Part shown: positions 3,285-62,745 of the stretch, one piece after another
Layout: the number at the start of each line of letters is the position of its first letter
Position numbering within the stretch: the first letter of the stretch is position 1
NCBI GenBank assembly: GCA_964017825.1
Contig: CAXHMA010000001.1
Location: forward strand, 83,928-147,927
Source of the DNA: an uncultured Alphaproteobacteria bacterium
GTDB lineage: Bacteria; Pseudomonadota; Alphaproteobacteria; RF32; CAG-239
Length of the DNA: 64,000 nucleotides
Reading direction: 5' to 3'
Notes under the pieces: model-generated
What the model was told of the DNA's origin: nothing
What the model saw: only the letters and a program-made list of their open reading frames with translations
Databases searched by the model: none
Program-made: the position numbers and the translations under genes

Positions 3285-5120
3285 TTACTGCATAATCTCT
3301 GCCCAAATTTCAGTCGGTACGCTGCCGCCGCCGACTTCTTTCATCGGGCTGTTGTCATCATTGCCGATCCAAACAGCCGTCGTATATTTGCCGTTTGACC
3401 CGATAAACCACGCATCGCGATAATTCTGCGACGTTCCGGTTTTCCCGCGCGCCTCGGCAACTTTCGCCGCTTTCCTGCCGGTCCCTTCCAAAACAACCGA
3501 ACGAAGCAGCCGGCGGATATCCGCCAGAGCTTTTTCCGATATAACACGGACTTTTGCCGAAGCTTCATGCTGATAAAGGAGATTTCCGTCCGTATCTTTG
3601 ATATAATCCGTCCCGTACGGAAAAACGGCATATCCTCCGTTTGCCGTCGCCGCATACGCCGCCGCCATGTCAATCACCCGGACTTCCTGCGCACCGAGAA
3701 TAATTGACGGCTCATCGTTAACATCCGAAGTAATCCCCATTTTCAACGCCGTTTTAATAATGTTGTCCAAATCCAGATAGGTTGCCAAATCAACCGTCGC
3801 CACATTAAGCGACTTTGCAAATGCCTGCTTCACCGTCACCGCGCCGTAAAAACGCTTGTCATAGTTCTGCGGCGTCCAGCCGTCAATATTTATCGGCTCG
3901 TCCGACAAAACATCATCGGGAGAGATACCCTGCTCCAACGCCGTCAGATAAACAAACAGCTTAAACGAAGAGCCCGCCTGGCGCAAAGCCTGTGTTGCGC
4001 GGTTAAACTGGCTTTTACTATAATCATAACCGCCGGCCATGACTTTAATCGCACCGCTGCCGTCCAAGACGACAACGGCTCCCTGCGTCACGTTTTTGCC
4101 TTTATTGGCGCGGATATGCTTTCTTAAAATAAACTCTGTCCGTCTTTGCAAATCATAGTCAAGCGTCGAACGCACATAAACATCCTGCTTAAAATCCTCC
4201 GTCATCTGTGCCATATCGCCCATAATATAGTCGCCGAAATAGCGGATATCCGCAATCTTATCGCCGTTGGCACTGCCTACCGGCATTTTCAGCGCTTTTT
4301 TATAGTCTTCGTCTGATATGGAACCTGCACGTTTCATGAGTGACAGCACAACATCCCCGCGCGACAGCGCCTGCTTTTTGTTTTTGAAATAATTATAACG
4401 GCTCGGCGCTTTCAACGCGCCTGCCAATATCGCCGCCTCGCGCAGATTCAAACGCTTCGCGGGCTTATTGAAAAAACGTTTGGCCGCTGCATTGATGCCG
4501 TACGCGCCGCTACCGAAAAAAACGCGGTTCAGATAAATATTTAATATCTGTTTTTTGCTGAAATGTTTTTCCAGCCAGCGCGCCAAAATATACTCCTGCA
4601 CTTTGCGCTTAATGCTCTTCTCACGGGTTAAAAACAGATTTTTGGCCGCTTGTTGCGTAATGGTGGAAGCCCCCTGTGCATACCGCCTTTTAACCGCATT
4701 CACCGCCATTGCCCGCACCAGACCGACATAGTCAATACCTTTGTGTTTATAAAATCTTCTGTCTTCCGTATCAATCACCGCCTGCGCCACATATTTCGGC
4801 AGCAAATCAACATCAACGGGTTCGGCAAACAACGCACCGTAGGAGACAAGTTCCCTCCCGTCATCGGACAGAATTTTAATCCCCGGCTGCCGCTCCACAT
4901 ATGCAGCGGTAGAAAAGGCCGGCAGCGTACTGCTGCAATACCAGACATAAATCCCTGAAATAAGCGCCGCGACAACAAAACACCATAGCGCAAACATCAA
5001 CAGCCCCGCAGCCGTACGCCGCTTGCGCCCTGTTGTTTTCTTCCGCTTACGCAGCGTTTTTTTCTTAGCTTTCTCTTCTTTTAATACCGGTTTGGATTTC
5101 CTTTTTCTACCCTGTACCAT
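3285..5120 (-). CDS. Class A penicillin-binding protein (transglycosylase + transpeptidase), PBP1A family, with Lys/Arg-rich N-terminal tail.
   Basis: GT51 motifs (IDTEDRRFY, RGxSTITQQ) followed by SxxK (GSSFK), SxN (KSLN), KTG (KTGTSQ). Confidence 0.8.
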   Translation of the reverse strand: MVQGRKRKSKPVLKEEKAKKKTLRKRKKTTGRKRRTAAGLLMFALWCFVVAALISGIYVWYCSSTLPAFSTAAYVERQPGIKILSDDGRELVSYGALFAEPVDVDLLPKYVAQAVIDTEDRRFYKHKGIDYVGLVRAMAVNAVKRRYAQGASTITQQAAKNLFLTREKSIKRKVQEYILARWLEKHFSKKQILNIYLNRVFFGSGAYGINAAAKRFFNKPAKRLNLREAAILAGALKAPSRYNYFKNKKQALSRGDVVLSLMKRAGSISDEDYKKALKMPVGSANGDKIADIRYFGDYIMGDMAQMTEDFKQDVYVRSTLDYDLQRRTEFILRKHIRANKGKNVTQGAVVVLDGSGAIKVMAGGYDYSKSQFNRATQALRQAGSSFKLFVYLTALEQGISPDDVLSDEPINIDGWTPQNYDKRFYGAVTVKQAFAKSLNVATVDLATYLDLDNIIKTALKMGITSDVNDEPSIILGAQEVRVIDMAAAYAATANGGYAVFPYGTDYIKDTDGNLLYQHEASAKVRVISEKALADIRRLLRSVVLEGTGRKAAKVAEARGKTGTSQNYRDAWFIGSNGKYTTAVWIGNDDNSPMKEVGGGSVPTEIWAEIMQ

Positions 5121-15921: not shown

Positions 15922-16197
15922 TTACTCCTCTTTCATATCTTCTAAACGCACCACAAGCCGCTTATTATAATATTTCAGTAACTCAGCTACGGCAAACCAG
16001 TTGAATTTGCGGCGCGCCATTTCCACCATTTCAATCTTATATGGCGGCACACCGATTTTTGCGCTCAACTCTTGCGATGACGCCCGCTTTTTCATCCGTT
16101 CGTTCAGCAAAAGCGTACCTATTTGGCGTTTGACATCATTACATAATATATCGCCGTTAAGGATATACTTTTTTTCTTCTTCTAATGTTTGAAACAT
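15922..16197 (-). CDS. Small XRE-type helix-turn-helix protein (91 aa), paralog of 40686..41009.
   Basis: HTH segment LSAKIGVPPYKIEMVE; AGGAG RBS; paralogous gene 25 kb away with the same upstream noncoding module. Confidence 0.55.
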   Translation of the reverse strand: MFQTLEEEKKYILNGDILCNDVKRQIGTLLLNERMKKRASSQELSAKIGVPPYKIEMVEMARRKFNWFAVAELLKYYNKRLVVRLEDMKEE

Positions 16198-16427
16198 GAT
16201 TTTTTACTCCTTGTTAAATTAAAACAAAAGGCGCTTAAAAGCGCCAGGGAGTTCACAAATCACAAAGCTATGACTCTCTTGGCCTTCAATATATAGCCAA
16301 GAGCTCCCTGACTTACATCAAGGAAAATGCTTTGAGAGCCTGTGACAGCCCTGACGGTGTCTCCACCGACAAAAGAAGTATAAAAGAGAATTTATAAAAG
16401 TAAAGTTAATTTTTTTGTTGTGGTATC
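16198..16427 (-). repeat. Rep2 copy A: ~225-bp conserved structured noncoding module upstream of HTH gene (about 90% identical to 41011..41235).
   Basis: Near-identical sequence at both loci; contains GC hairpin + T-run 20 nt before RBS, nested inverted repeats (CTCTTGGC...GCCAAGAG, CAGGGAGCTC...GAACTCCCTG). Confidence 0.7.
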
Positions 16428-16442
16428 GCGCCGTTTTTTTAG

Positions 16443-16560
16443 AGGAGAGAAATTTTGTGAGTGAGCCTGAAATGTCCGCCAAGGGAGGGAAGTGTACATA
16501 AAAGTACATGACCCGACCGAAGTGCGGCTTCCATCCACAAATTAGTTCACAATAATTTGA
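16443..16560 (+). repeat. Rep1 copy A (dispersed ~110-bp stem-loop repeat, core GTGTACATAAAAGTACATG, tail TTCCATCCACAAATTAGTTCACAA).
   Basis: Shares head module GAGAAATTTTG[C/T]GAGTGAGCCTGAAAT, core and tail with five other copies in the window. Confidence 0.75.
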
Positions 16561-22295: not shown

Positions 22296-22505
22296 ATCGC
22301 CCCGTTACAGGAGCGATTTTGCCCACCCTTAAAGGAGAGAAATTTTGCGAGTGAGACCAATCAGACTCACTCATTAAAAATTAAAGGAGGGAAATTTTGC
22401 GAAATAATCGCAGATGTCCTGCCCTAAAGCGCAGCGTACATAGAGGTACGAGAGCATTTAGGGACAGGCCTCCATCTGCGAATTAGTTCACAACAATTTA
22501 CCCCT
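22296..22505 (+). repeat. Rep1 copy B (with duplicated head modules) abutting adhE stop codon.
   Basis: GGAGAGAAATTTTGCGAGTGAG, GGAGGGAAATTTTGCGAAATAATCGCAGATGTCCTG, core GCGTACATAGAGGTAC, tail CCTCCATCTGCGAATTAGTTCACAA. Confidence 0.75.
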
Positions 22506-25254: not shown

Positions 25255-25329
25255 TTATATTTTAAAATCAAGGGCATGGAAAATTGCATCCCGGCCAATC
25301 AACAAAACGATAAGGCATAATTTTTTCAT
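25255..25329 (-). pseudogene. Remnant 5' cassette (24 aa: MKKLCLIVLLIGRD...) of the secreted-paralog family, ATGA-overlapping the stop of 25326..26087.
   Basis: Nucleotide string AAGGCATAATTTTTTCAT identical to the starts of three upstream paralogs. Confidence 0.4.
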
Positions 25330-26087
25330 GGTTCCCTGTTTTCTCCGTATTTGGCCGCCGCTTCGTTTAAAAGGGTGTCTGCGGCATGTTCCAGCAACAC
25401 ATTGGTTTTGAATTTGACTGTATATTCTCTAAGCTGATATTCCGGATTCAGATATGAATAATACTTTTTTGTTTCATCTGCCATTCTGACGAAAGCTTCT
25501 GTTACCTCTGCTGCTTTATCAGGGTAAAATTGCGTTGCGGCCGTATCAATAATTTCATAAACACACCGCTCGTAACCATCGGCATATGCTCTTTCCGCCA
25601 CATGAATTGCCTTGATGTTGCCGTCATCATCTTTCAGTTCCGAACGATAGGGGACAAAATCGCCGCACTGTTCCAATTTTTGCCGCAGTGCATTAACTGC
25701 TTCTATTCCATATGGATGTTCGGCATCTAAATATTCTTTGACTTCGGTTCGCGAAAAATCAGCACATTGAACAATGTAACCAAGATTTCGGTATATTTCA
25801 GCCTTGTCAGTCGGTATGTAAATATAAGCGATATCCGTCTCCAAGCCGTTAATATATATGAGCCTTTCCTGTATTTTATCATCGGCAATCGCCTTGACCG
25901 AAGCCGGCGCTATTTTACGCGCTTTGTTATCGCCCTGACACGTCGGACAATAATGTATCACCTCTTTGGCATTCTGTAACAGTTTGACGGCGTTTTCAGC
26001 AATGTCTGCCGTATTGTAAACGCAGATATCGGCATGCGCCGTTATCGCAGCCAAACACAGCAAAACAATAAGGCATAATTTTTTCAT
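25326..26087 (-). CDS. Secreted Cys-containing hypothetical protein (253 aa) sharing only its signal peptide with neighbours.
   Basis: Signal peptide MKKLCLIVLLCLAAITAHA; ATG start. Confidence 0.6.
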   Translation of the reverse strand: MKKLCLIVLLCLAAITAHADICVYNTADIAENAVKLLQNAKEVIHYCPTCQGDNKARKIAPASVKAIADDKIQERLIYINGLETDIAYIYIPTDKAEIYRNLGYIVQCADFSRTEVKEYLDAEHPYGIEAVNALRQKLEQCGDFVPYRSELKDDDGNIKAIHVAERAYADGYERCVYEIIDTAATQFYPDKAAEVTEAFVRMADETKKYYSYLNPEYQLREYTVKFKTNVLLEHAADTLLNEAAAKYGENREP

Positions 26088-26090
26088 GAT

Positions 26091-27014
26091 TTACTCCTCA
26101 TTTAAATCACATTTGAGGCGGTTTTGTTTTTCAAAACAATCTTTATGTACGAGATATAAATCTTTTTTATTGAAATAGTCTATATAAAGAGCATAAAAAT
26201 CATTCGGGTTAAAAGTTATTTGATGAATCAATTTGTTACGGCGGTCTAAATTAAATTCAGTATAAGGCTTTCCGTCTTTGCCGATAATCACAGAACCGTC
26301 AGCTTTAAATTCAAACGAAGCCCTGCCGCATGTAAGCTTAGGATTATCTTTCAGCCGATAATAATTCTCCGGCAATGTGCTTCCTTCCTCATATGAATGC
26401 AGTTCAATAAATCCTTTCCCTAAATCCTCATAGCAGTTTAGTTCAACGACGTTAAACTCGGGAAAGACAACCTTATCTTCATCAGCCAATATCAGTTCGT
26501 AACTGGTTTCCTCCGGTATATCCGGCATTTTATAATCATAACGGCAGTAGCTTCGGTCAGCCCCTTCATAAGCGCATCCGCGCACAAAAATTTTGCCGTC
26601 TTTTATGCCGACGGAATCATATATGCCGTCAGCTTCTCGACCGAACGGGAATAAATTGCCTAAGTATTTTTTCCCTGCATACAGCTGTACGGCCAATTTA
26701 TAGCTATATGGATATGACTGCATAAACACTGGTGTAAATTTCATTTTATATTCAACACCGTCAATAACGCAGCTTTCTTCGCGCGGTATTGGTTTTGTTT
26801 GAGTTGTTGTGACGTTATATTCGTATAATCCGTGTTTTTGTGCTCTCTGTGCCCAATCCTTATCTTCCGGTTCGGCAAAAAAATCTTTCATATCCGTACG
26901 GAATTCTTTTACATTTGGCAGACAGCTTGTTTTGTATGTATATTCATAATAACTTGTCGCATGTGCCGTTATCGCAACCAGACACAGCAATATTAAAAGG
27001 CATAATTTTTTCAT
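26091..27014 (-). CDS. Secreted Cys-rich hypothetical protein, tandem paralog A (307 aa).
   Basis: ~70% aa identity to 27014..27949; signal peptide MKKLCLLILLCLVAITAHA; start ATG overlaps upstream stop (TGATG). Confidence 0.65.
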   Translation of the reverse strand: MKKLCLLILLCLVAITAHATSYYEYTYKTSCLPNVKEFRTDMKDFFAEPEDKDWAQRAQKHGLYEYNVTTTQTKPIPREESCVIDGVEYKMKFTPVFMQSYPYSYKLAVQLYAGKKYLGNLFPFGREADGIYDSVGIKDGKIFVRGCAYEGADRSYCRYDYKMPDIPEETSYELILADEDKVVFPEFNVVELNCYEDLGKGFIELHSYEEGSTLPENYYRLKDNPKLTCGRASFEFKADGSVIIGKDGKPYTEFNLDRRNKLIHQITFNPNDFYALYIDYFNKKDLYLVHKDCFEKQNRLKCDLNEE

Positions 27015-27949
27015 CAATTTATCTCCTTAAACATATTGCAGCCGGAGCATTCTTCCTTTTCAGAGCAAAATCTGCTGTTCGAATACAGTTCCTTTTTATC
27101 AAAATATTTTATATAAAAACCCGCAAGCAAACTCGCATCAAAAGCTATTTGATAAATCTGTTTGTTACAGAGTGCCGGATTAAAGTCAGCATACGTTTTT
27201 TCATCTTTGCTGACGATGACCGAACCGTCAGCTTTAAATTTTATGGAAGCCCTGCCGCATGTAAGCTTAGGATTATCTTTCAATCGATAATAATTTTCCG
27301 GCAACTCGCTTTCTTCCTTATAAGAACGCAGCTCAACAAATCCTTTTTCCAAGTCTTCATAGCAGTTCAATTCAACGATGTTAAATTCCGGAAAGACAAC
27401 CTTGTTTTTATCAGCCAATATCAATTCATAACTGGTTTCTTCAGGCATATCCAACTCTTTATAATCATAAAGGCAATAACTTATATTGGTTGCCTCGTAA
27501 ATACAACCTCGCACAAAAATTTTGCCGTCTTTTATGCCGACGGAATCGTAGCCGTCATCATAATCCGCACCAAACGGAAAAAGGATGCCCCTATATTTTT
27601 TTCCGGCGTAAAGCTGCACAGCCGTCTCATGACGGCCATAATATTCCCGAACAAGTATAGGAATAAATTTCATTCTATATTCAACACCGTCTATGGTGCA
27701 GCTTTCTTCCCTCGGCAGCGGCTTTTCTTCATATGTATCCACATTGAGCCTGTATAATCCGTGTTTTTCAGCTTTTTGTAACCAATCTGCATCATCCCGA
27801 ACATCAAAAAAAACTTTTCTGTCTGCACGGAATTCTTTTACATTCGGCAAACAGCTTGTTTTATATGTATATTCATAATAACTTGTCGCATGTGCCTTTT
27901 TGGCAAACGCAGCCAAACACAGCAATATTAAAAGGCATAATTTTTTCAT
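27014..27949 (-). CDS. Secreted Cys-rich hypothetical protein, tandem paralog B (311 aa).
   Basis: Paralog of 26091..27014; same signal-peptide cassette. Confidence 0.65.
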   Translation of the reverse strand: MKKLCLLILLCLAAFAKKAHATSYYEYTYKTSCLPNVKEFRADRKVFFDVRDDADWLQKAEKHGLYRLNVDTYEEKPLPREESCTIDGVEYRMKFIPILVREYYGRHETAVQLYAGKKYRGILFPFGADYDDGYDSVGIKDGKIFVRGCIYEATNISYCLYDYKELDMPEETSYELILADKNKVVFPEFNIVELNCYEDLEKGFVELRSYKEESELPENYYRLKDNPKLTCGRASIKFKADGSVIVSKDEKTYADFNPALCNKQIYQIAFDASLLAGFYIKYFDKKELYSNSRFCSEKEECSGCNMFKEIN

Positions 27950-27952
27950 GAT

Positions 27953-28687
27953 TTACTCTTGTTCTAAATTAAAAACTTTTGCCGTTTCGTTCATGTACCA
28001 TGCAACCACTTTTTTAATTTCAGTATAACGGAATGCGGCAATATAATCCTCAACGACGGTGCCGTTGTCATAATTTTCCGTCGGGGTATATATATCCCGC
28101 AGCAGAGTTTCATATGCAGTCAAATAATTATCAAAATTTTTTTTATATTTATCTGCGTTATCGAGATGGCAGTTTTTAAACAATGAAGACAGTGTTTGCA
28201 AATAACATTCTTCCGCTTCTGTAAGATTACTGTTTTGTACATTGCCGTATAGTTCTTCGCATTGCTGATATCGTTTCTGCGTCTGCATAAATTTATCACG
28301 CATGGAAATATATATTTTATCAGAACCTATTTCTTTCAAAAGACGATTATCATCCGTTTTGCAACCGATTATCAGTCCTAAATTTTGATATGTTCCGGAT
28401 ATTTCAGAATAAACAAAGAAATCCGTTGCCGCATAACTGTTGTCTTTTATGCTGAAACGTCCGAACTCCAAACTGTTTTCATCTGTTGTGAAATCAATAT
28501 CGGCAAAAGAAATCTCCTGCGGTTTAGTGTTTTCAAACAGCAGAATTTCTTTTGCGGATGATAAAACATTTTCTGCTTTTTCCATTTCCTCAACGCTGAG
28601 GGCATCGCATCCGCAATAATCAGCCCGAGCCATGTATATAGGAAACAGCATTAAAACAGAGATAAAGATTAAAATTTTATTTTTCAT
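27953..28687 (-). CDS. Secreted Cys-containing hypothetical protein (244 aa).
   Basis: Signal peptide MKNKILIFISVLMLFPIYMARA; operonic with neighbours. Confidence 0.55.
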   Translation of the reverse strand: MKNKILIFISVLMLFPIYMARADYCGCDALSVEEMEKAENVLSSAKEILLFENTKPQEISFADIDFTTDENSLEFGRFSIKDNSYAATDFFVYSEISGTYQNLGLIIGCKTDDNRLLKEIGSDKIYISMRDKFMQTQKRYQQCEELYGNVQNSNLTEAEECYLQTLSSLFKNCHLDNADKYKKNFDNYLTAYETLLRDIYTPTENYDNGTVVEDYIAAFRYTEIKKVVAWYMNETAKVFNLEQE

Positions 28688-30669: not shown

Positions 30670-30893
30670 CAGAAATTTTGCGAAGCAGCCGCGGGAGCCT
30701 TACCCGCGTTACGCCCCGTTACAGATGGGAAATTTTGCGAAATAACCGCGGGAACCCTGCCCCATTACAGGCGGAAAATTTTGGTAGTGAGCCTGAAATA
30801 TCCGCCAAAGGGCAGGAGTGTACATAAAGGTACATGACTGCCCTGCAGAGCGGCTTCCATTTCAGAACTCAATACCAAAATTTACCCCTGTAA
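30670..30893 (+). repeat. Rep1 copy C (three head modules + core) abutting pyk stop codon.
   Basis: GAAATTTTGCGAAGCAGCCGCGGG, GGGAAATTTTGCGAAATAACCGCGGG, GTGAGCCTGAAATATCCGCC, core GTGTACATAAAGGTACATG, tail GGCTTCCATTTC...AATTTACCCCTGTAA. Confidence 0.75.
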
Positions 30894-32790: not shown

Positions 32791-32834
32791 CTCTGTTACA
32801 TCAGCCTTTCTGCGTTCATAATTTTATATAAAAT

Positions 32835-32940
32835 GCGGAATTTTGCTTTAATATCGCGGGAGCCCTGCCGGGGAGGAGAGTACATTGAAGTACATGGCCC
32901 GACCGACGACAGGCCCCTCCCGCGAATTAATTTACAAAAT
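32835..32940 (+). repeat. Rep1 copy D, ends 8 nt before stop of permease gene.
   Basis: GGAATTTTGCTTTAATATCGCGGGAGCC, core GAGTACATTGAAGTACATG, tail CCCTCCCGCGAATTAATTTACAAAAT. Confidence 0.7.
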
Positions 32941-40685: not shown

Positions 40686-41009
40686 TTACTCAACAGCTTC
40701 GGTACTTGTCTCCGCTGGCGGCTCACTGCCGTATTTCAAACCCAGCGTCGGCGCATTCTCTAAACGAAGAGCCAGCGTCTTACCGTAAAAATCCAGCAAT
40801 ATCTCCACGGCTCCCCAGTGTGGCTTTTCTTTGGCGAGTTCCACCTCCTCAATCGTCCGTTCCGCCAGCCCTGTCTTGTCGCTGACCAACGTCAACCGCA
40901 GCCGACGCCGTTGCCGCTCTGCAAACAACGCCTGCCCGACCAGCTGACGCATATGCCGACAGCAAATCTCGCCGTTGCGCATAAAGTTACTAAATTCCTC
41001 ACTATTCAT
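40686..41009 (-). CDS. Small XRE-type helix-turn-helix protein (107 aa), paralog of 15922..16197.
   Basis: HTH LVSDKTGLAERTIEEVE; same upstream Rep2 module. Confidence 0.55.
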   Translation of the reverse strand: MNSEEFSNFMRNGEICCRHMRQLVGQALFAERQRRRLRLTLVSDKTGLAERTIEEVELAKEKPHWGAVEILLDFYGKTLALRLENAPTLGLKYGSEPPAETSTEAVE

Positions 41010-41010
41010 G

Positions 41011-41235
41011 ATTTTTTACTCCTTGTTTAAGTTAAAACAAAAGGCGCTTAAAAGCGCCAGGGAGTTCAGAAATCACCAAAATATGACTCTCTTAGCCTTC
41101 AATATATAGCCAAGAGCTCCCTGACTTATTATCAAGGAAAAATTATTTTGGAGAGCCTCTGACAGCCCTGACGGTGTCTCCACCGACAAAAGGAAGTATA
41201 AGGGAAGAATTATAAAAGTAAAGTTAATTTTTACT
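41011..41235 (-). repeat. Rep2 copy B (conserved structured upstream module of HTH gene).
   Basis: About 90% identical to 16198..16427 including GGCGCTTTTAAGCGCC hairpin + T-run and nested inverted repeats. Confidence 0.7.
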
Positions 41236-41517
41236 CTACGCCAAAAGACCAAAAGTAGAACAAATTTCTTGACAATAAAACCAAAGTTTTATATAACAAA
41301 AAAGCCTTGACGCGGCAACGTCTCGGCTTTTACTAACTACGGAAAGGAGTTGAACTCCCAACTTCCTACCTGATGTTAGGAAGTATAGCATAAAAATAAT
41401 AAAAGTCAACAGCTTTTTATTTTTATGTGGTAGTCAGCGTCTTTCCCAACCGCCCAAACGGGCTGAAAGACGGCCGCAACAAAAAGTGCTATAATGCACT
41501 TTTTATAAGGAGACGCA

Positions 41518-41652: not shown

Positions 41653-41754
41653 CTGATGAGGCGGAGCTTGTCAACTCCGCCCTTTGATTTTTACTCTGCC
41701 ACATCTCTCACTCTGACGGATTGTTAGGCGAGAAAGTGCTGTGCTGAAAGCAAA

Positions 41755-41940
41755 AGTCCCCTCCCAAACCGCAGCGTACATTTTAAAGGCAACAAGTTGC
41801 CCGTGAGCCGGCCGAAGTCAGGCCTCGTATTGTGCTGCAAATTGCGAAATAGCCGCGGATGTCCCCCGAGGAGCACGAATGTACATAGAAGTACATGACG
41901 CGACGAAGAGGGGCTTCCATCCGCAAGCTAGTTCACAATT
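41755..41940 (+). repeat. Rep1 copy E (1.5 units) abutting grpE stop codon.
   Basis: CCGCAGCGTACAT partial unit then AAATTGCGAAATAGCCGCGGATGTCC, core GAATGTACATAGAAGTACATG, tail GGCTTCCATCCGCAAGCTAGTTCACAA. Confidence 0.75.
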
Positions 41941-42480
41941 TTATCGTGCAACAACGACCATTGCTTCGCGAAGAATGCGGTCATGTATGGTATACCCCGC
42001 CTGTAATTCGGCTAAAATGGTACCGGGTTCGGCTTTTTTGTCTTCCACTTCTTGGACGACGCGTTCAAAGTTGGGGTCAAATATCTCTCCGATATGATTG
42101 AAACGTTTGATGCCGAATTTTTCAAACACTTTGGTTAATTCGTTTTGTGTCAGCTCCACGCCTTTGAGCAGGTCGGCGCACGCCTGTTCGTTGCCGGACA
42201 TGGCGGTAACCGCGCGCTCCAGATTGTCGGCGACACCTAGTAGCTCTTTGGCAAAAGATGAAATGGCAAATTTAATTGTTTTTTCGGTTTCCTGCTGCAC
42301 GCGTTTTTTCATGTTATCCATTTCGGCATACAGGCGGAGATAGTCGTCTCTAAGCTTATTATATTCTTCTATGCTTTTGGTTTCTTCCGCAGCGTCCTCT
42401 TCGGCTTCAGCGCAAACTTCTTCCTCTGCCGGCAGTTCGTCCTCGGGATTATTTTTCAACTCTTCGTTTTCAGTGCTCAT
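41941..42480 (-). CDS. grpE: Nucleotide exchange factor GrpE.
   Basis: Acidic N-tail, LRLYAEMDNMKKR, C-terminal beta domain. Confidence 0.9.
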   Translation of the reverse strand: MSTENEELKNNPEDELPAEEEVCAEAEEDAAEETKSIEEYNKLRDDYLRLYAEMDNMKKRVQQETEKTIKFAISSFAKELLGVADNLERAVTAMSGNEQACADLLKGVELTQNELTKVFEKFGIKRFNHIGEIFDPNFERVVQEVEDKKAEPGTILAELQAGYTIHDRILREAMVVVAR

Positions 42481-49379: not shown

Positions 49380-49658
49380 ATGAGCGATAAAATCAGCGTA
49401 GAACTCAAAATCATAAATGAACGCGGACTGCACGCCAGAGCTGCCGCCAACTTTGTCAAAAGTATAGACGGGTTGAATGCCGATGTTGAAGTGGAACGCC
49501 TCGGTCAATGTGTCGGCGGCTGTTCCATTATGGGGTTGATGATGCTTGCCGCCGGCAAAGGAACAACGATTAAAGTTTCGGCAAGCGGCGCGGATGCCCA
49601 AAAAGCCATCAACAATATTTCTGATTTGGTAAACAATAAATTCGGCGAGGAAAAATGA
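49380..49658 (+). CDS. ptsH: Phosphocarrier protein HPr/NPr.
   Basis: GLHARAAA around His15; 92 aa. Confidence 0.85.
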   Translation: MSDKISVELKIINERGLHARAAANFVKSIDGLNADVEVERLGQCVGGCSIMGLMMLAAGKGTTIKVSASGADAQKAINNISDLVNNKFGEEK

Positions 49659-50587
49659 GCGGCACCCCTGCCCCCCGTAATAAAACCATAGTTCTGACAC
49701 CCGAAGAAACGGAACAATACGCAGCGCGTGCCGTAACGCTTACCAAAAAATCTTCATTAAAAGATATCATAGACCGCACCATTTGGCAGGATACATTCGA
49801 AGCCTTAAAATTTCTTCCCGCCAATTTCGCCGATTTGGTCGTTGTCGACCCGCCTTATAATCTGACCAAAAAATTCGGCAGCAAAGAATTCAAGTCCATG
49901 GATTGGAATGATTACAAACGCTGGATGGATAAATGGCTGGCGGAAGTGTTTATCTCTTTAAAGCCCAACGGCAGTCTGTATATCTGCTCCGATTGGAACA
50001 CATCCATCGCCGTTCCCGAAATTGCCGGCAAATATTTCCTCTTAAAAAACCGCATAACCTGGGAGCGCGAAAAAGGCAGAAGCTCCGGCAACAACTGGAA
50101 AAACTGCATTGAAGACATCTGGTTTTTTACCAAATCTCCCGAATACACGTTTAATCTGGATGCTGTCAAATTAAAGCGTCCGGTGCTCGCACCGTATAAA
50201 GACGATAACGGTACCCCGAAAGACTGGCAGGAAGATGATGAAAATGACGGTAAAAAATTCCGCCTGACAGCACCGTCAAACCTTTGGACGGATATCTCCA
50301 TTCCGTTTTGGTCAATGGCTGAAAACACATCTCATCCGACGCAAAAGCCGGAAAAACTCATTGCCAAGCTGATATTGGCTTCAAGCAATGAGGGCGACGT
50401 CGTTTTTGACCCGTTTCTCGGCTCGGGAACCACTTCCGTCACCGCGGCCAAGCTCGGACGGCACTATGTCGGCATTGAACGCGAAAAAGAATATGTAGCC
50501 TTGGCCGAAAAGAGGCTGGAAAGGGCTGCCGAAGACAAAACCATCCAAGGCTACGAAGACGGCGTTTTCAAACTCCGCCATGCTTAA
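49655..50587 (+). CDS. Beta-class N6-adenine DNA methyltransferase, CcrM-like orphan (no adjacent endonuclease).
   Basis: Motif IV DPPYN near N-terminus, motif I FDPFLGSGTT near C-terminus; ATGA overlap with HPr stop. Confidence 0.8.
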   Translation: MSGTPAPRNKTIVLTPEETEQYAARAVTLTKKSSLKDIIDRTIWQDTFEALKFLPANFADLVVVDPPYNLTKKFGSKEFKSMDWNDYKRWMDKWLAEVFISLKPNGSLYICSDWNTSIAVPEIAGKYFLLKNRITWEREKGRSSGNNWKNCIEDIWFFTKSPEYTFNLDAVKLKRPVLAPYKDDNGTPKDWQEDDENDGKKFRLTAPSNLWTDISIPFWSMAENTSHPTQKPEKLIAKLILASSNEGDVVFDPFLGSGTTSVTAAKLGRHYVGIEREKEYVALAEKRLERAAEDKTIQGYEDGVFKLRHA

Positions 50588-50645: not shown

Positions 50646-50866
50646 TTGCAAAAATAGATAATTCGTTATATAAACCATCTAAGAAGCTGCTAATAAACAG
50701 GTCCGGGGCGTCAGAAACCCTGTAAGCAATCGTTTCCATAACGAAGGACATCGCGTTTTGAGGAGTTAAAGGACGGACGTCGGCGAATAAGAGCTTGCTC
50801 AAATAAGCCGAGCCGTTGATTGCTTACGGTTTCTGAACGTCCGCCCGCCTTTTCGTGCGGGCTTTT
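50646..50866 (+). ncRNA. Candidate ~185-nt sRNA with own promoter (TTGCAA-17-TATAAA), ~25-bp imperfect closing helix and intrinsic terminator; no ATG inside.
   Basis: 5' arm GGGGCGTCAGAAACCCTGTAAGCAATC pairs with 3' arm GATTGCTTACGGTTTCTGAACGTCCGCCC; terminator GCCCGCCTTTTCGTGCGGGC+TTTTT. Confidence 0.45.
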
Positions 50867-50902
50867 TCATTTTCTGCTTGAAACATCTCAAAAATCTAAA
50901 AT

Positions 50903-51005: not shown

Positions 51006-52877
51006 TTGAGAATGAAACAGGGAAAAAATATTATCATCTGGTTGGCAGCTTTTGTTTTTCTGAGCCTTGCCTTAAACGGCCTCGCTCCCGAAAGCAGAAC
51101 CGGAACTGCCGAAAAAATCGCCTTTTCCGACTTTATGGACAGTGCGGAAGAAAACCGCGTCAATTCTGTCACCATTGTCGGCAACGATATACAGGGCACT
51201 TATAATGACGGTACCAAATTCCATACCTATGCGCCCTTTGACCCGAATATGATTGAAAGTTTAAGAAAGCTGAATATCAAAATCGAAGCCCGCCCGATAG
51301 ATACATCCGAAAGCACTTTCTGGGGCGTGCTGATTTCCTGGTTCCCGATGCTGCTTCTTATCGGCGTTTGGATATTCTTTATGCGTCAGGCCAATAGCGG
51401 CAACAATAAAGCCATGAGTTTCGGCAAATCGCGCGCCAAACTGATAGAAAACACCAAACGCGTGACTTTCGCGGACGTAGCCGGCGCGGATGAAAGCAAG
51501 CAGGAACTGGAAGAAATTATCGACTTTTTAAAAGACCCGCAGAAATTCCAGCGTCTGGGCGGCAAAATTCCGCGGGGCGTTTTGCTTGTCGGCCCTCCGG
51601 GAACAGGTAAAACCTTGTTGGCCAAAGCTGTGGCAGGCGAGGCTAACGTACCGTTTTTCTCCATTTCCGGCTCGGATTTTGTCGAAATGTTTGTCGGCGT
51701 CGGAGCTTCGCGTGTGCGTGATATGTTTGCCCAAGCCAAAAAAAACGCACCCTGCCTGCTCTTTATTGATGAGATTGATGCCGTCGGACGCCATCGCGGC
51801 GCCGGTCTCGGCGGCGGCAATGACGAACGCGAGCAAACCTTAAACCAATTGCTGGTGGAAATGGACGGTTTTGACGCCAACGAAAACGTCATCCTGATTG
51901 CCGCAACCAACCGCCCCGACGTGCTTGACCCTGCGCTTTTGCGCCCCGGGCGTTTTGACCGACAGGTAACGGTTGTGAACCCCGATGTCAAAGGGCGTGA
52001 GGAAATCTTAAAAGTACACACGCGCAAAGTGCCTTTGGCCAAAGATGTGGATTTAAGCATTGTTGCCCGCGGCACACCGGGATTTTCCGGCGCGGATTTG
52101 GCAAACCTTGTCAATGAAGCCGCACTTTTGGCTGCCCGTAAAAATAAGCTCAAAGTCAGCTCAGCCGACTTTGACGCGGCCAAAGATAAAGTCTTAATGG
52201 GCAACGAACGCAAATCCATGGCTATGGACGAGAAAGAAAAAATGCTCACGGCATATCATGAAGCCGGGCATGCTATCTGCTCGTTAAACGTCAAAGATAC
52301 CGACCCGATACATAAAGCGACAATTATCCCCCGCGGCCGCGCGCTCGGCATGGTGCAGCAGTTGCCGGAAAAAGACCGGTATTCATACACGCGCGCGCAG
52401 ATGCTTTCCCGCCTTGCCATCATGATGGGCGGACGTGTTGCCGAAGAAATGAAATTCGGTTATGACGCCGTAACATCCGGCGCTTCGTCAGACATCAACG
52501 CCGCCACCAATCTGGCGCGTGCCATGGTGACCGAATGGGGCATGAGCGATATATTGGGACCGATTCGCTATTCCGAAAACTCCAATGAAGTTTTCCTCGG
52601 GCGTTCCGTTACCCAAAACCAAAACATGAGCGAAGAAACCGCGCGCCTTGTGGATACGGAAATCAAACGCCTTGTCACTGACGGTTACGAAGAAGCGAAA
52701 AAGATTCTGCAAAAGAATAAAAAAGATTGGGAAACGCTTGCACAGGCATTAATGGAATATGAAACCTTAACCGGAGACGAAATTAAAGACGTCCTTGCCG
52801 GAAAAGAGATTGACAAGACCAAAGATGCCCCGGTTCCGGAAGAAAAGCGCACCAAATCTTCCGTACCCGAGCTGTAA
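51006..52877 (+). CDS. ftsH: ATP-dependent zinc metalloprotease FtsH.
   Basis: Two TM, AAA Walker [12 protein letters not shown], zinc site HEAGHA. Confidence 0.95.
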
Positions 52878-62597: not shown

Positions 62598-62745
62598 CAG
62601 TTCACAAAATTACATATCCACTAAAAAACTGCGGAATTTTGCGAAATAATCGCGGATGTCCTGCGAGGGAGGGGAGTGTACAAAAGGTACATGACCCGAC
62701 CGATGACAGGCTTCCACCCGCGAATTAGTTCACAAAATTACACTG
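62598..62745 (+). repeat. Rep1 copy F flanked by 16-bp direct repeats AGTTCACAAAATTACA; 3 nt from rplQ stop.
   Basis: GGAATTTTGCGAAATAATCGCGGATGTCCTG, core GTGTACAAAAGGTACATG, tail CAGGCTTCCACCCGCGAATTAGTTCACAA. Confidence 0.75.

Follow-up and report, generated by a model that had tools for sequence, protein, structure and literature searches.

A covarying leader RNA, putatively a transcription attenuator, upstream of a family of small XRE-type regulator genes in uncultured gut Alphaproteobacteria

A 64,000-nt stretch of contig CAXHMA010000001.1, from an uncultured Alphaproteobacteria bacterium (this whole stretch is the window in what follows), contains on its minus strand two similar units, loci 1 and 2, in each of which a noncoding segment of ~150 nt immediately precedes a small gene for a helix-turn-helix (HTH) protein of the XRE type. 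Judging from sequence comparison, the object under selection in this segment is a single-stranded fold of the gene-sense strand, and such a fold, with a promoter-like site in front of it and a terminator behind it, argues for action at the RNA level. We consider it probable, if only modestly so, that the segment is a cis-acting transcription attenuator, either riboswitch-like or a protein-dependent leader.

A preliminary description of the window had noticed that the sequences upstream of the two genes are ~90% identical and their proteins ~35% identical, and had reasoned that the noncoding part must be functional. We obtained 89.7% identity over the aligned RNA columns and 38% between the proteins (31/82 residues, BLASTP E=2e-16), and the strong strand-specific covariation described below bears out a function of the noncoding part, as RNA. 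The early suggestion of a terminated small RNA or attenuator also agrees well with our results, since there is a promoter-like start and a covarying terminator ~20 nt before the ribosome-binding site (RBS) of the regulator.

Anatomy and covarying fold of the leader

The conserved block spans ~220 bp and extends down to the ATG, beginning at ~16414 in locus 1 and at ~41233 in locus 2. Similarity between the loci ends sharply on both sides, a few codons into the coding sequence and just upstream of the -35 hexamer, and repeat finding in the window revealed no duplication of the flanks of the two loci, which are unrelated. Two cores of 28-29 nt from the module occur exactly twice each in the window, versus 0.00 occurrences expected from shuffled sequences. 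Compared to shuffles, both modules fold with low energy: the minimum free energy (MFE) is -74 kcal/mol for a 226-nt fragment of locus 1 (16195..16420; z = -6.2), and a fragment of ~230 nt from locus 2, from upstream of the promoter to the ATG, has an MFE z-score of -6.3. The elements of both units are the following.

Locus 1
16377..16404 (-): promoter-like site from a consensus scan, with -35 TTTACT (16404..16399), a 16-nt spacer and -10 TATACT (16382..16377)
16221..16370 (-): structured leader RNA of ~150 nt, from P1 through the end of the U-tract
16353..16370 (-): P1, 5'-terminal hairpin GUCGGUG-GAGA-CACCGUC, with a GNRA-type loop
16349..16352 (-): 5' strand of P0, AGGG, pairing with CCCU at 16246..16249
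16329..16345 (-): 5' strands of P2 and P3, UCACAGGCUC-U-CAAAGC
16304..16325 (-): P4 hairpin, with P4a UUCCUUGAU (16325..16317), a loop and P4b GUCAGGGAG (16312..16304)
16276..16303 (-): P5 hairpin, CUCUUGGC / GCCAAGAG, with the 12-nt loop UAUAUAUUGAAG at 16295..16284
16253..16275 (-): conserved junction AGUCAUA (16275..16269), then the 3' strands of P3 and P2, GCUUUG-UGAUUUGUGA
16249..16246 (-): 3' strand of P0, CCCU
16245..16230 (-): terminator hairpin GGCGCU-UUUA-AGCGCC (GGCGCUUUUAAGCGCC), from a terminator scan
16229..16221 (-): U-tract UUUUGUUUU
16212..16206 (-): Shine-Dalgarno sequence AAGGAGU
15922..16197 (-): HTH gene, 91 aa, XRE fold, with the ATG at 16197 and the stop codon ending at 15922

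Locus 2
41195..41222 (-): promoter-like site TTTACT-N16-TATACT, from a consensus scan
41034..41187 (-): leader RNA, with P1 (41187..41170), P4 (41139..41117), P5 (41116..41089, loop 41108..41097), terminator (41058..41043) and U-tract (41042..41034)
41024..41018 (-): Shine-Dalgarno sequence
40686..41009 (-): HTH gene, coding for a 107-aa XRE-fold paralog

Transcription of locus 1 would start at ~16370-16371, at the foot of hairpin P1. The Shine-Dalgarno sequence and the ATG lie ~20 nt past the U-tract at both loci, and across copies from other genomes the RBS and ATG are found 20-30 nt on. The GC hairpin formed by GGCGCTTTTAAGCGCC plus TTTTGTTTT, which the preliminary description likened to an intrinsic terminator, was retrieved as terminator-like by the terminator scan at 16245..16230 as well as at 41058..41043.

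We aligned 31 distinct copies of the leader, from the inferred start to the U-tract, and obtained a consensus fold with RNAalifold, making the counts on the MAFFT alignment. Of the 46 pairs in the fold, 22 have changed on both sides in a compensatory manner. Standard pairs fill 98.8% of the cells, compared to 85.0% after shuffling, and there are 202 double-change cells versus 49.8+-7.2, with none of 500 shuffles matching the observed value; in a control in which the 3' partners were slid by 1-3 columns, pairing was 38-45% and there were 12-25 double changes. A covariance model built from the alignment assigns 144-197 bits to intact copies read in the sense direction and 21-32 bits to the antisense reading, and the fold includes several invariant G.U pairs where the opposite strand would carry C.A. 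Within the window this model produced exactly two matches, with 184.6 bits for locus 2 and 178.2 bits for locus 1 (E ~1e-53).

The fold starts with the P1 hairpin, followed by a rod (P0-P2-P3) that leads to a three-way junction with P4 and P5, and the terminator comes directly after. Five of the six pairs of P1 have changed on both sides and its loop is mostly GAGA; P1 is swapped for unrelated hairpins in the group of L031 and in L073/L079 (L numbers designate contigs with copies). P0 (AGGG:CCCU) is invariant within the main family, in which P4 displays half-compensatory changes only. P2 and P3 add up to 15 pairs, nine of them compensatory and with 99.8% of the cells paired; P3 is hypervariable in sequence and its complementarity is always kept among the 31 copies, with L071 treated apart below. 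Compensated changes are seen even between the two window copies, in both P2 (CACAG/UUGUG vs CAGAG/UUCUG) and P3 (AAAGC/GCUUU vs AAAAUA/UAUUUU). In P5, five of nine pairs are compensatory, 100% of the cells are paired, and the 12-nt loop is invariant in all 31 copies; L075 and L077 have the loop variants GUAUAUUUGAAG and GUAUAUCUGAAG. Likewise, three of the six pairs of the terminator stem are compensatory across copies, and every copy has the U-tract. The position of the promoter is also kept in essentially all copies, with a -35 box TTGACT or TTTACT and a -10 box TATACT, TAAACT or TATAGT at a constant distance to P1, and this arrangement is also present in divergent sub-families.

The fold redefines several motifs that had been read from the two window copies. 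Of the nested inverted repeats described around a TATATAT box, the inner one (CTCTTGGC/GCCAAGAG) is the covarying P5, with TATATAT in its loop, but the nesting does not hold: the arms of the outer repeat, CAGGGAG/CTCCCTG, are complementary as described, yet they do not form a helix in the ground state, where they pair elsewhere, in P4 and P0. The palindrome GGCGCTT..AAGCGCC, regarded as a possible operator for the HTH protein, is not conserved in sequence and covaries as a stem (e.g., GGCACC../..GGTGCC or GACACC../..GGTGTC), and an operator array is equally at odds with the conserved positions, which fall in the loops and junctions of a fold that is single-stranded and includes obligate G.U pairs. 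A small protein or leader peptide encoded in the module was rejected because the overlapping open reading frames (ORFs) differ in frame and sequence between the loci and no AUG is conserved across leader copies. A tRNA or att-site remnant was also dropped, as no tRNA genes were found in the window.

Comparison of the whole window with Rfam 15 (4227 families) at gathering thresholds gave no matches, and at E<=10 the segment 15900..16700 retrieved chance-level matches only (Histone3, 16.6 bits; isrQ, 13.3 bits), so the scan envisaged in the preliminary description matched no described family. Full-text literature searches with the motif sequences and for XRE-associated RNA motifs returned nothing relevant. 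A survey of structured RNAs from the human microbiome mentions HTH-XRE genes as frequent neighbours of candidate RNAs (PMC8040213), and the first 200 of its 408 supplementary files do not contain the motif (Fremin and Bhatt, 2021). The leader RNA family is apparently undescribed.

Copies of the leader and the genes that follow them

Further copies were retrieved with pattern scans (CAGGGAGCN{5,9}TATATATTGAAG) that demanded exact matches and under-sampled divergent sub-families, so that copy numbers are lower bounds. In a collection with one genome per species we found 42 loci, 38 of which were judged real copies by sequence inspection, all from metagenome-assembled genomes (MAGs) of uncultured Alphaproteobacteria from mouse, deer, buffalo and other guts; metagenomes contributed 20 pattern loci, including 16 real copies. 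Overall, scans and contig look-ups yielded more than 55 copies beyond the window pair, in at least 10 genomes and with unrelated flanks, confined to MAGs or metagenome contigs of uncultured animal-gut Alphaproteobacteria. There are 5-9 copies per genome: at least nine in MGBC117992, at least eight in MGBC103325, at least six in RGIG8928 and at least five in both RGIG8741 and SRP199465_co2_2. The module matched nothing in viral contigs or in phage and plasmid collections, and for this reason an origin from a prophage, plasmid or satellite was dropped.

Downstream of all copies but L044, at a short and constant distance, there are an RBS and the gene for an HTH-family paralog of 87-112 aa, a different one each time, and orientation and spacing to the start codon do not change. 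Conversely, the leader was found upstream of every confident family member whose contig was examined, including distant members of 150 aa; a marginal protein match without the RNA (P0015/L072, E=1.7e-3) was counted as a non-member. This near-strict one-to-one linkage suggests action in cis. The census foreseen in the preliminary description therefore extends its two copies to a general arrangement in which an HTH family gene follows nearly all leaders, and the outcome that it named as fatal, only two copies within a segmental duplication, does not fit more than 55 copies with unrelated flanks.

The units stand alone between unrelated housekeeping genes, which in the window code for LDH plus a GT8 glycosyltransferase and for GrpE plus LptF, and elsewhere for MutS plus Lon, GyrA, S13 plus SecY, or EF-Tu. 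A retron noncoding RNA was considered and rejected, because no reverse transcriptase occurs among flanking genes such as those for LDH, GT8, LptF, GrpE, MutS, Lon, GyrA, SecY and EF-Tu.

Copies that first seemed aberrant were normal copies with small repeat insertions. These elements, of ~80-190 bp, are inserted in the terminator loop (L021, L022, L028, L037, and L056) or in the linker before P4 (L012, L034, and L046), two tolerated places where they leave the stem bases and the conserved cores intact, and in RGIG8928 one element occupies the identical position in three copies. A separate case is L071 (86-256), where the P3 strands are not complementary (CAAGAA vs ACUGUUG) and the 3' half is identical to that of L065; this leader arose either by recombination between copies or during assembly, as a chimera joined across the repeated core.

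Among 5.8 billion sequences there are only eight relatives of the 91-aa protein from locus 1; the MAGs from which they come are all labelled Alphaproteobacteria or 'Acetobacter sp.', and the contigs concerned share the upstream module, with compensatory changes visible. A profile search against 1.84 billion representatives retrieved 37 family clusters at E<=1e-10, and 37 full-length paralogs from ten genomes sort into 22 ortholog-like groups at an identity of at least 55%. For each window protein, two or three other species contain an ortholog (with 67-74% identity in other MAGs for the 91-aa protein, and in L023 and L028 for the 107-aa protein), indicating that the paralogs are old and individually conserved.

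The best match of the family profile in the PDB is HigA (6af3, E=5e-5), with other XRE proteins next. Pfam HTH_31 matches the 107-aa protein with 24.2 bits, below the curated cut-off of 27 (E=4e-5), and the 91-aa protein with E=0.08; NCBIfam yielded nothing significant for the HTH proteins, and PADLOC yielded weak matches only, none of them significant. The AlphaFold2 model of the 91-aa protein has a mean predicted local distance difference test (pLDDT) of 88.6 and four assigned helices, the first comprising residues 5-36. Its top matches with Foldseek, with probability 1.0, were HipB, C.BclI, C.AhdI, ClgR and XRE regulators, with target-normalised template modelling (TM) scores of 0.6-0.8, and ribosome-bound MBF1/EDF1 chains also matched, at ranks 24, 25, and 34. 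The encoded proteins are thus predicted to have a helical XRE fold. Conserved residues are core positions, whereas those of the recognition helix vary between paralogs.

Considering all copy pairs, the mean identity of the leaders is 74% between genomes and 79% within genomes, and the mean identity of the proteins, ~32%, is nearly uncorrelated with that of the leaders (r=0.19). The window pair is extreme in this respect, at 89.7%, and the leader of locus 1 is 81% identical to that of its ortholog L003, with 73% identity between the proteins. From this behaviour we deduce purifying selection on the RNA together with some homogenisation of leaders within genomes, presumably by gene conversion. 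Promoter spacers are also alike within genomes and not between orthologs; HTH-specific operators in the spacer were accordingly rejected, and paralog-specific autoregulation at the promoter is unsupported. The case thus documents a partial concerted evolution of leaders within genomes, and exemplifies that a higher conservation of noncoding than of coding sequence between paralogs can flag RNA function.

A putative antiterminator and the competing explanations

The contigs of distant HTH members contain weaker matches to the covariance model at the same upstream position, with 146 bits for L075, 125 and 120 bits for L077 and L078, 40.7 bits for L079/L080, and 26.5 and 24.7 bits for L073 and L074. 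The sequences of these sub-families are very different, and each folds independently into P1, P0, P2, P3, P4, P5 and the terminator. P0 is swapped with its pairing kept, to GGAG:CUCC in L079/L081 and to GGUG:CACC in L073/L074; the sub-families therefore supply the covariation that is absent from P0 and P4 within the main family. Across three sub-families, segments P0a, P4a, P4b and P0b change in concert:

Main family: P0a AGGG, P4a UUCCUUG, P4b CAGGGAG, P0b CUCCCUG
L073: P0a GGUG, P4a UUCCAUC, P4b GGUGGAG, P0b CUCCACC
L079: P0a GGAG, P4a CUCCU, P4b GGGGAG, P0b CUCCCC

In all three lineages P0a is a substring of P4b, which neither helix alone demands, and as a consequence P4b is complementary to P4a and also to P0b plus the first 2-3 bases of the terminator stem. 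At locus 1, this second partner of P4b is CUCCCUGGC (16243..16251), which combines P0b with three bases from the start of the terminator stem. Of the four possible pairings, the cognate P4b:P0b duplex is the strongest, with -12.8 to -17.8 kcal/mol. Between the main family and L073 it is cognate-specific, and it takes up 2-3 nt at the foot of the terminator stem, adjoining the U-tract, where pairing is essential for intrinsic termination. The outer inverted repeat CAGGGAG/CTCCCTG is therefore reinterpreted as a putative antiterminator pairing. Another candidate antiterminator, a GUC:GGC extension of P0 seen in a prefix fold, was rejected because its middle pair is possible in only 15 of the 31 copies and its columns covary with P1 instead.

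The fold and its strand, the promoter-like and terminator-like sites, the linkage to the HTH family and the joint changes of the four segments are computational results. We infer transcription, termination, read-through, the direction of the switch and an effector as follows. Each locus would be a self-contained transcription unit, with a near-consensus sigma-70-type promoter driving a structured 5' leader of ~150 nt. In the ground state, P4b (GUCAGGGAG) would pair with P4a and P0b (CCCU) with P0a, allowing the terminator to form, so that most transcripts would end as an RNA of ~150 nt and the regulator would be off. Upon switching, P4b would pair with CUCCCUGGC, the base of the terminator could not form, and transcription would read through into the HTH gene. 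An effector that binds at the conserved loops and junctions might set the balance; it could be a small molecule or else a protein, for which the HTH proteins themselves are possible candidates. We favour an attenuator mainly because leaders and genes of one family are linked one to one and because P4b co-varies with the base of the terminator. Since every paralog, 5-9 per genome, bears the same leader, a single signal might gate the whole battery of regulators, whose recognition helices differ.

More tentatively, the leader might represent a new class of sensor RNA, a small-molecule riboswitch or an RNA bound by XRE proteins, serving 5-9 paralogous transcription factors per genome. If this were the case, one RNA-sensed signal would fan out to many DNA-binding specificities, a regulatory layout that to our knowledge has not been described for riboswitches, and the switch would be a four-segment strand swap that co-varies across sub-families.

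Several points weigh against a cis-acting attenuator. Transcription, termination and read-through are all predicted. In nested folding, forcing the antiterminator costs ~12 kcal/mol (range 5-16) because its helix excludes P2/P3; to form, it would need a pseudoknot with P2/P3, the action of a factor, or favourable kinetics of folding. The co-variation of the four segments comprises three independent lineages only, and a single copy of the main family, L053/L058 with CACCCUG, is mismatched in the antiterminator. Known riboswitches usually govern metabolic or transport genes, and not only transcription factors. Additionally, L044 contains the sole orphan leader (4137-4307; 162 bits), with an intact terminator and no HTH gene downstream, and in L016, L021 and L039 the HTH gene is apparently disrupted and the RNA intact; these copies hint at a function of the RNA of its own.

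Such a function is the core of the alternative that the ~150-nt RNA is mainly a stable, trans-acting small RNA (sRNA), with 5-9 sibling genes per genome, and that the HTH genes are expressed by leaky read-through; either the UAUAUAUUGAAG loop or purine-rich segments would be a seed or a protein-binding site. A discrete RNA is what would be expected from the strong promoter-like site, the 5'-terminal hairpin and the efficient-looking terminator, and the invariance of loop and junction sequences across copies, the score of the orphan leader, on par with its neighbours, the three intact RNAs beside disrupted genes, and the partial homogenisation of leaders within genomes, as it occurs in some sibling sRNA families, all fit with it. 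We nevertheless regard it as unlikely: the near-obligate link to one gene family (>54/55 copies) is not expected of a purely trans-acting RNA, no HTH family member lacking the RNA was found in the contigs examined, and the co-variation of P4b with the terminator base would have no role in trans. Besides, the only near-complement of the loop outside the modules in the 64-kb window is one site with one mismatch.

It is less plausible still that RNA and HTH protein are partners, with the protein binding its own leader autogenously or with an RNA that neutralises or sequesters it, as in type III toxin-antitoxin systems. The RNA is tied exclusively to one protein family, the gene order is that of ToxIN-type loci, an XRE fold can contact RNA, as suggested by the matches of the model to ribosome-bound MBF1/EDF1, and the autogenous variant would fit an attenuator with the HTH protein as effector. 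However, Tandem Repeats Finder detected no tandem repeats at either locus (0 rows), PADLOC matches were weak only, and the predicted protein is an ordinary XRE DNA-binding fold nearest to HipB, HigA and C-proteins, and not an endoribonuclease; moreover, with proteins of ~32% identity and a variable recognition helix facing a near-invariant RNA, a shared RNA-binding surface is not evident.

Finally, a role of the module at the DNA level (an operator array, a target for recombination or transposition, or a selfish repeat similar to miniature inverted-repeat transposable elements, MITEs, or to repetitive extragenic palindromic sequences, REPs) or a recent segmental duplication would agree with its multiple copies, with contigs that break beside it, and with the small repeats and partial homogenisation of some leaders, but is very improbable and already largely refuted by covariation and census: compensatory changes that keep pairing, with obligate G.U pairs on one strand only, rule out double-strand operators, the palindrome sequence is not conserved, the window flanks are unrelated, phages, plasmids and viral contigs gave no matches, and, unlike MITEs, the module keeps a constant orientation and distance to the same gene family in at least 10 genomes and has no terminal inverted repeats flanking the unit.

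If the leader is a working attenuator, it would add a well-covarying cis-regulatory RNA family from the uncultured animal-gut Alphaproteobacteria, a clade for which experimental genetics hardly exists. Its logic would be unusual, with one sensor ahead of every member of an otherwise unannotated and ancient family of small XRE regulators, and the sharing of this sensor would suggest that many regulons are coordinated by one signal. The four co-varying segments also provide a concrete switch model open to mutational testing.

Neighbouring elements and comparison with known systems

The window also contains a dispersed intergenic repeat of ~100-200 bp, Rep1, with the cores AATTTTGCGA..., GTACAT..AAGTACATGAC and GGCTTCCATCCGCAAATTAGTTCACAA, at the following positions:

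16439-16558: Rep1 copy
22319-22499: Rep1 copy
30672-30878: Rep1 copy
32830-32938: Rep1 copy
41733-41944: Rep1 copy
62626-62741: Rep1 copy

The preliminary description had associated Rep1 with the module through a shared 9-mer and a location within 500 bp of each locus, an association that dissolved on closer comparison. Rep1 lies 25-150 bp upstream of the module at locus 1 and ~600 bp upstream at locus 2, only two of the six window copies are near an HTH module, the other four having no module nearby, and in other genomes a Rep1 core occurs within 700 bp of only three of 55 modules. The 9-mer, AGTTCACAA, is shared by locus 1 only (locus 2 has AGTTCAGAA) and is within a covarying helix, so that its sharing is a coincidence. 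A Rep1-like copy is also found in another MAG (L033), and Rep1 is probably a REP/MITE-type element unrelated to the leader. A different, palindromic repeat, AGTCATTGCGAGG ... CCTCGCAATGACT / CGTGGCAATCT, crowds the intergenic DNA of these MAGs and is often immediately 5' of the promoter of the module (e.g., L022, L024, L039, and L047).

Directly upstream of the module of locus 2, the segment 41300-41409 (-) has a promoter-like site (TTGACT-N16-TATACT with TG, 41409..41382) followed by a sequence of ~90 nt with three hairpins, which ends in the terminator-like GACGUUGCCGCGUC..UUUUUU and has an MFE z-score of -4.5. This element, whose promoter region is similar to the one in the module (repeat family D7), could be a small RNA in its own right. 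A rod-like structured element with its own terminator (50676-50872, +; MFE -69.5 kcal/mol, z = -3.3) is located between a DNA-methyltransferase-like ORF (49655..50587) and ftsH (51006..52877) and includes a sub-threshold match to sRNA-Xcc1 at 50771..50854 (RF02221, 34.6 bits versus a gathering threshold of 53, E=1.4e-4). A weak covariance-model match at 50680..50872 was discarded as a leader copy, this being a different RNA. Lastly, region 25326-28687 (-) is a tandem array of four paralogous genes for products of 244-311 aa, in units of ~930 bp that are 72-87% identical. Three of the four products start with the signal-peptide-like MKKLCL(I/L).LLCL.A and the fourth (27953..28687) starts with a different hydrophobic stretch; they are probably diversifying secreted or lipoprotein paralogs.

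The HTH proteins resemble XRE/Cro-C1 proteins, such as HipB, HigA, C-proteins and ClgR, in fold and length, although they form a small, clade-restricted family. Unlike in HipB, HigA and C-protein systems, the genes are monocistronic and have no partner gene for a toxin or for restriction-modification.

The order of promoter, structured RNA, Rho-independent terminator and protein gene is shared with the type III loci ToxIN, CptIN and TenpIN, in which the terminator sets the RNA:protein ratio. In contrast to these, our units are chromosomal, beside housekeeping genes and with 5-9 per genome, and they have neither a tandem repeat array nor a ToxN/AbiQ-type endoribonuclease; a type III toxin-antitoxin system was thus rejected, given the lack of tandem repeats at both loci and a protein of the XRE-fold HTH type. 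Sibling sRNA families, such as Qrr1-5 or the alphaproteobacterial 'cuckoo' alpha-r14/CcsR RNAs, likewise consist of several near-identical, independently terminated RNAs per genome. Whereas sibling sRNA genes are independent of one downstream family, over 54 of 55 copies of the leader are fused to the HTH family, and, compared with these sRNA families, each copy is 5' of a coding gene from one family, without an Rfam match or a seed repeat of the CCUCCUCCC type.

Autogenous protein-binding leaders, exemplified by those for ribosomal proteins L10, L20 and S15, offer a further parallel, being structured leaders found only upstream of their own gene family; the single-stranded motifs of our leader would also suit recognition by a protein. 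They differ in that here the candidate ligands are XRE DNA-binding proteins that are ~32% identical, facing a near-invariant RNA, and we know of no RNA-binding role for XRE-fold DNA-binding domains in bacteria.

With respect to terminating riboswitches and orphan riboswitch candidates, the leader departs in its targets, exclusively one family of small transcription factors instead of metabolic or transport genes, and in an alternative pairing that would be pseudoknotted with P2/P3. It resembles them in its position directly behind a promoter, in a multi-helix junction whose stems covary while its junction and loop nucleotides are invariant, in a terminator immediately 3' of the closing helix, in a putative alternative pairing over the terminator base, and in the presence of several copies per genome. 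The adenine pbuE/ydhL switch, in which the closing helix of an aptamer competes with an intrinsic terminator, is an analogue in architecture.

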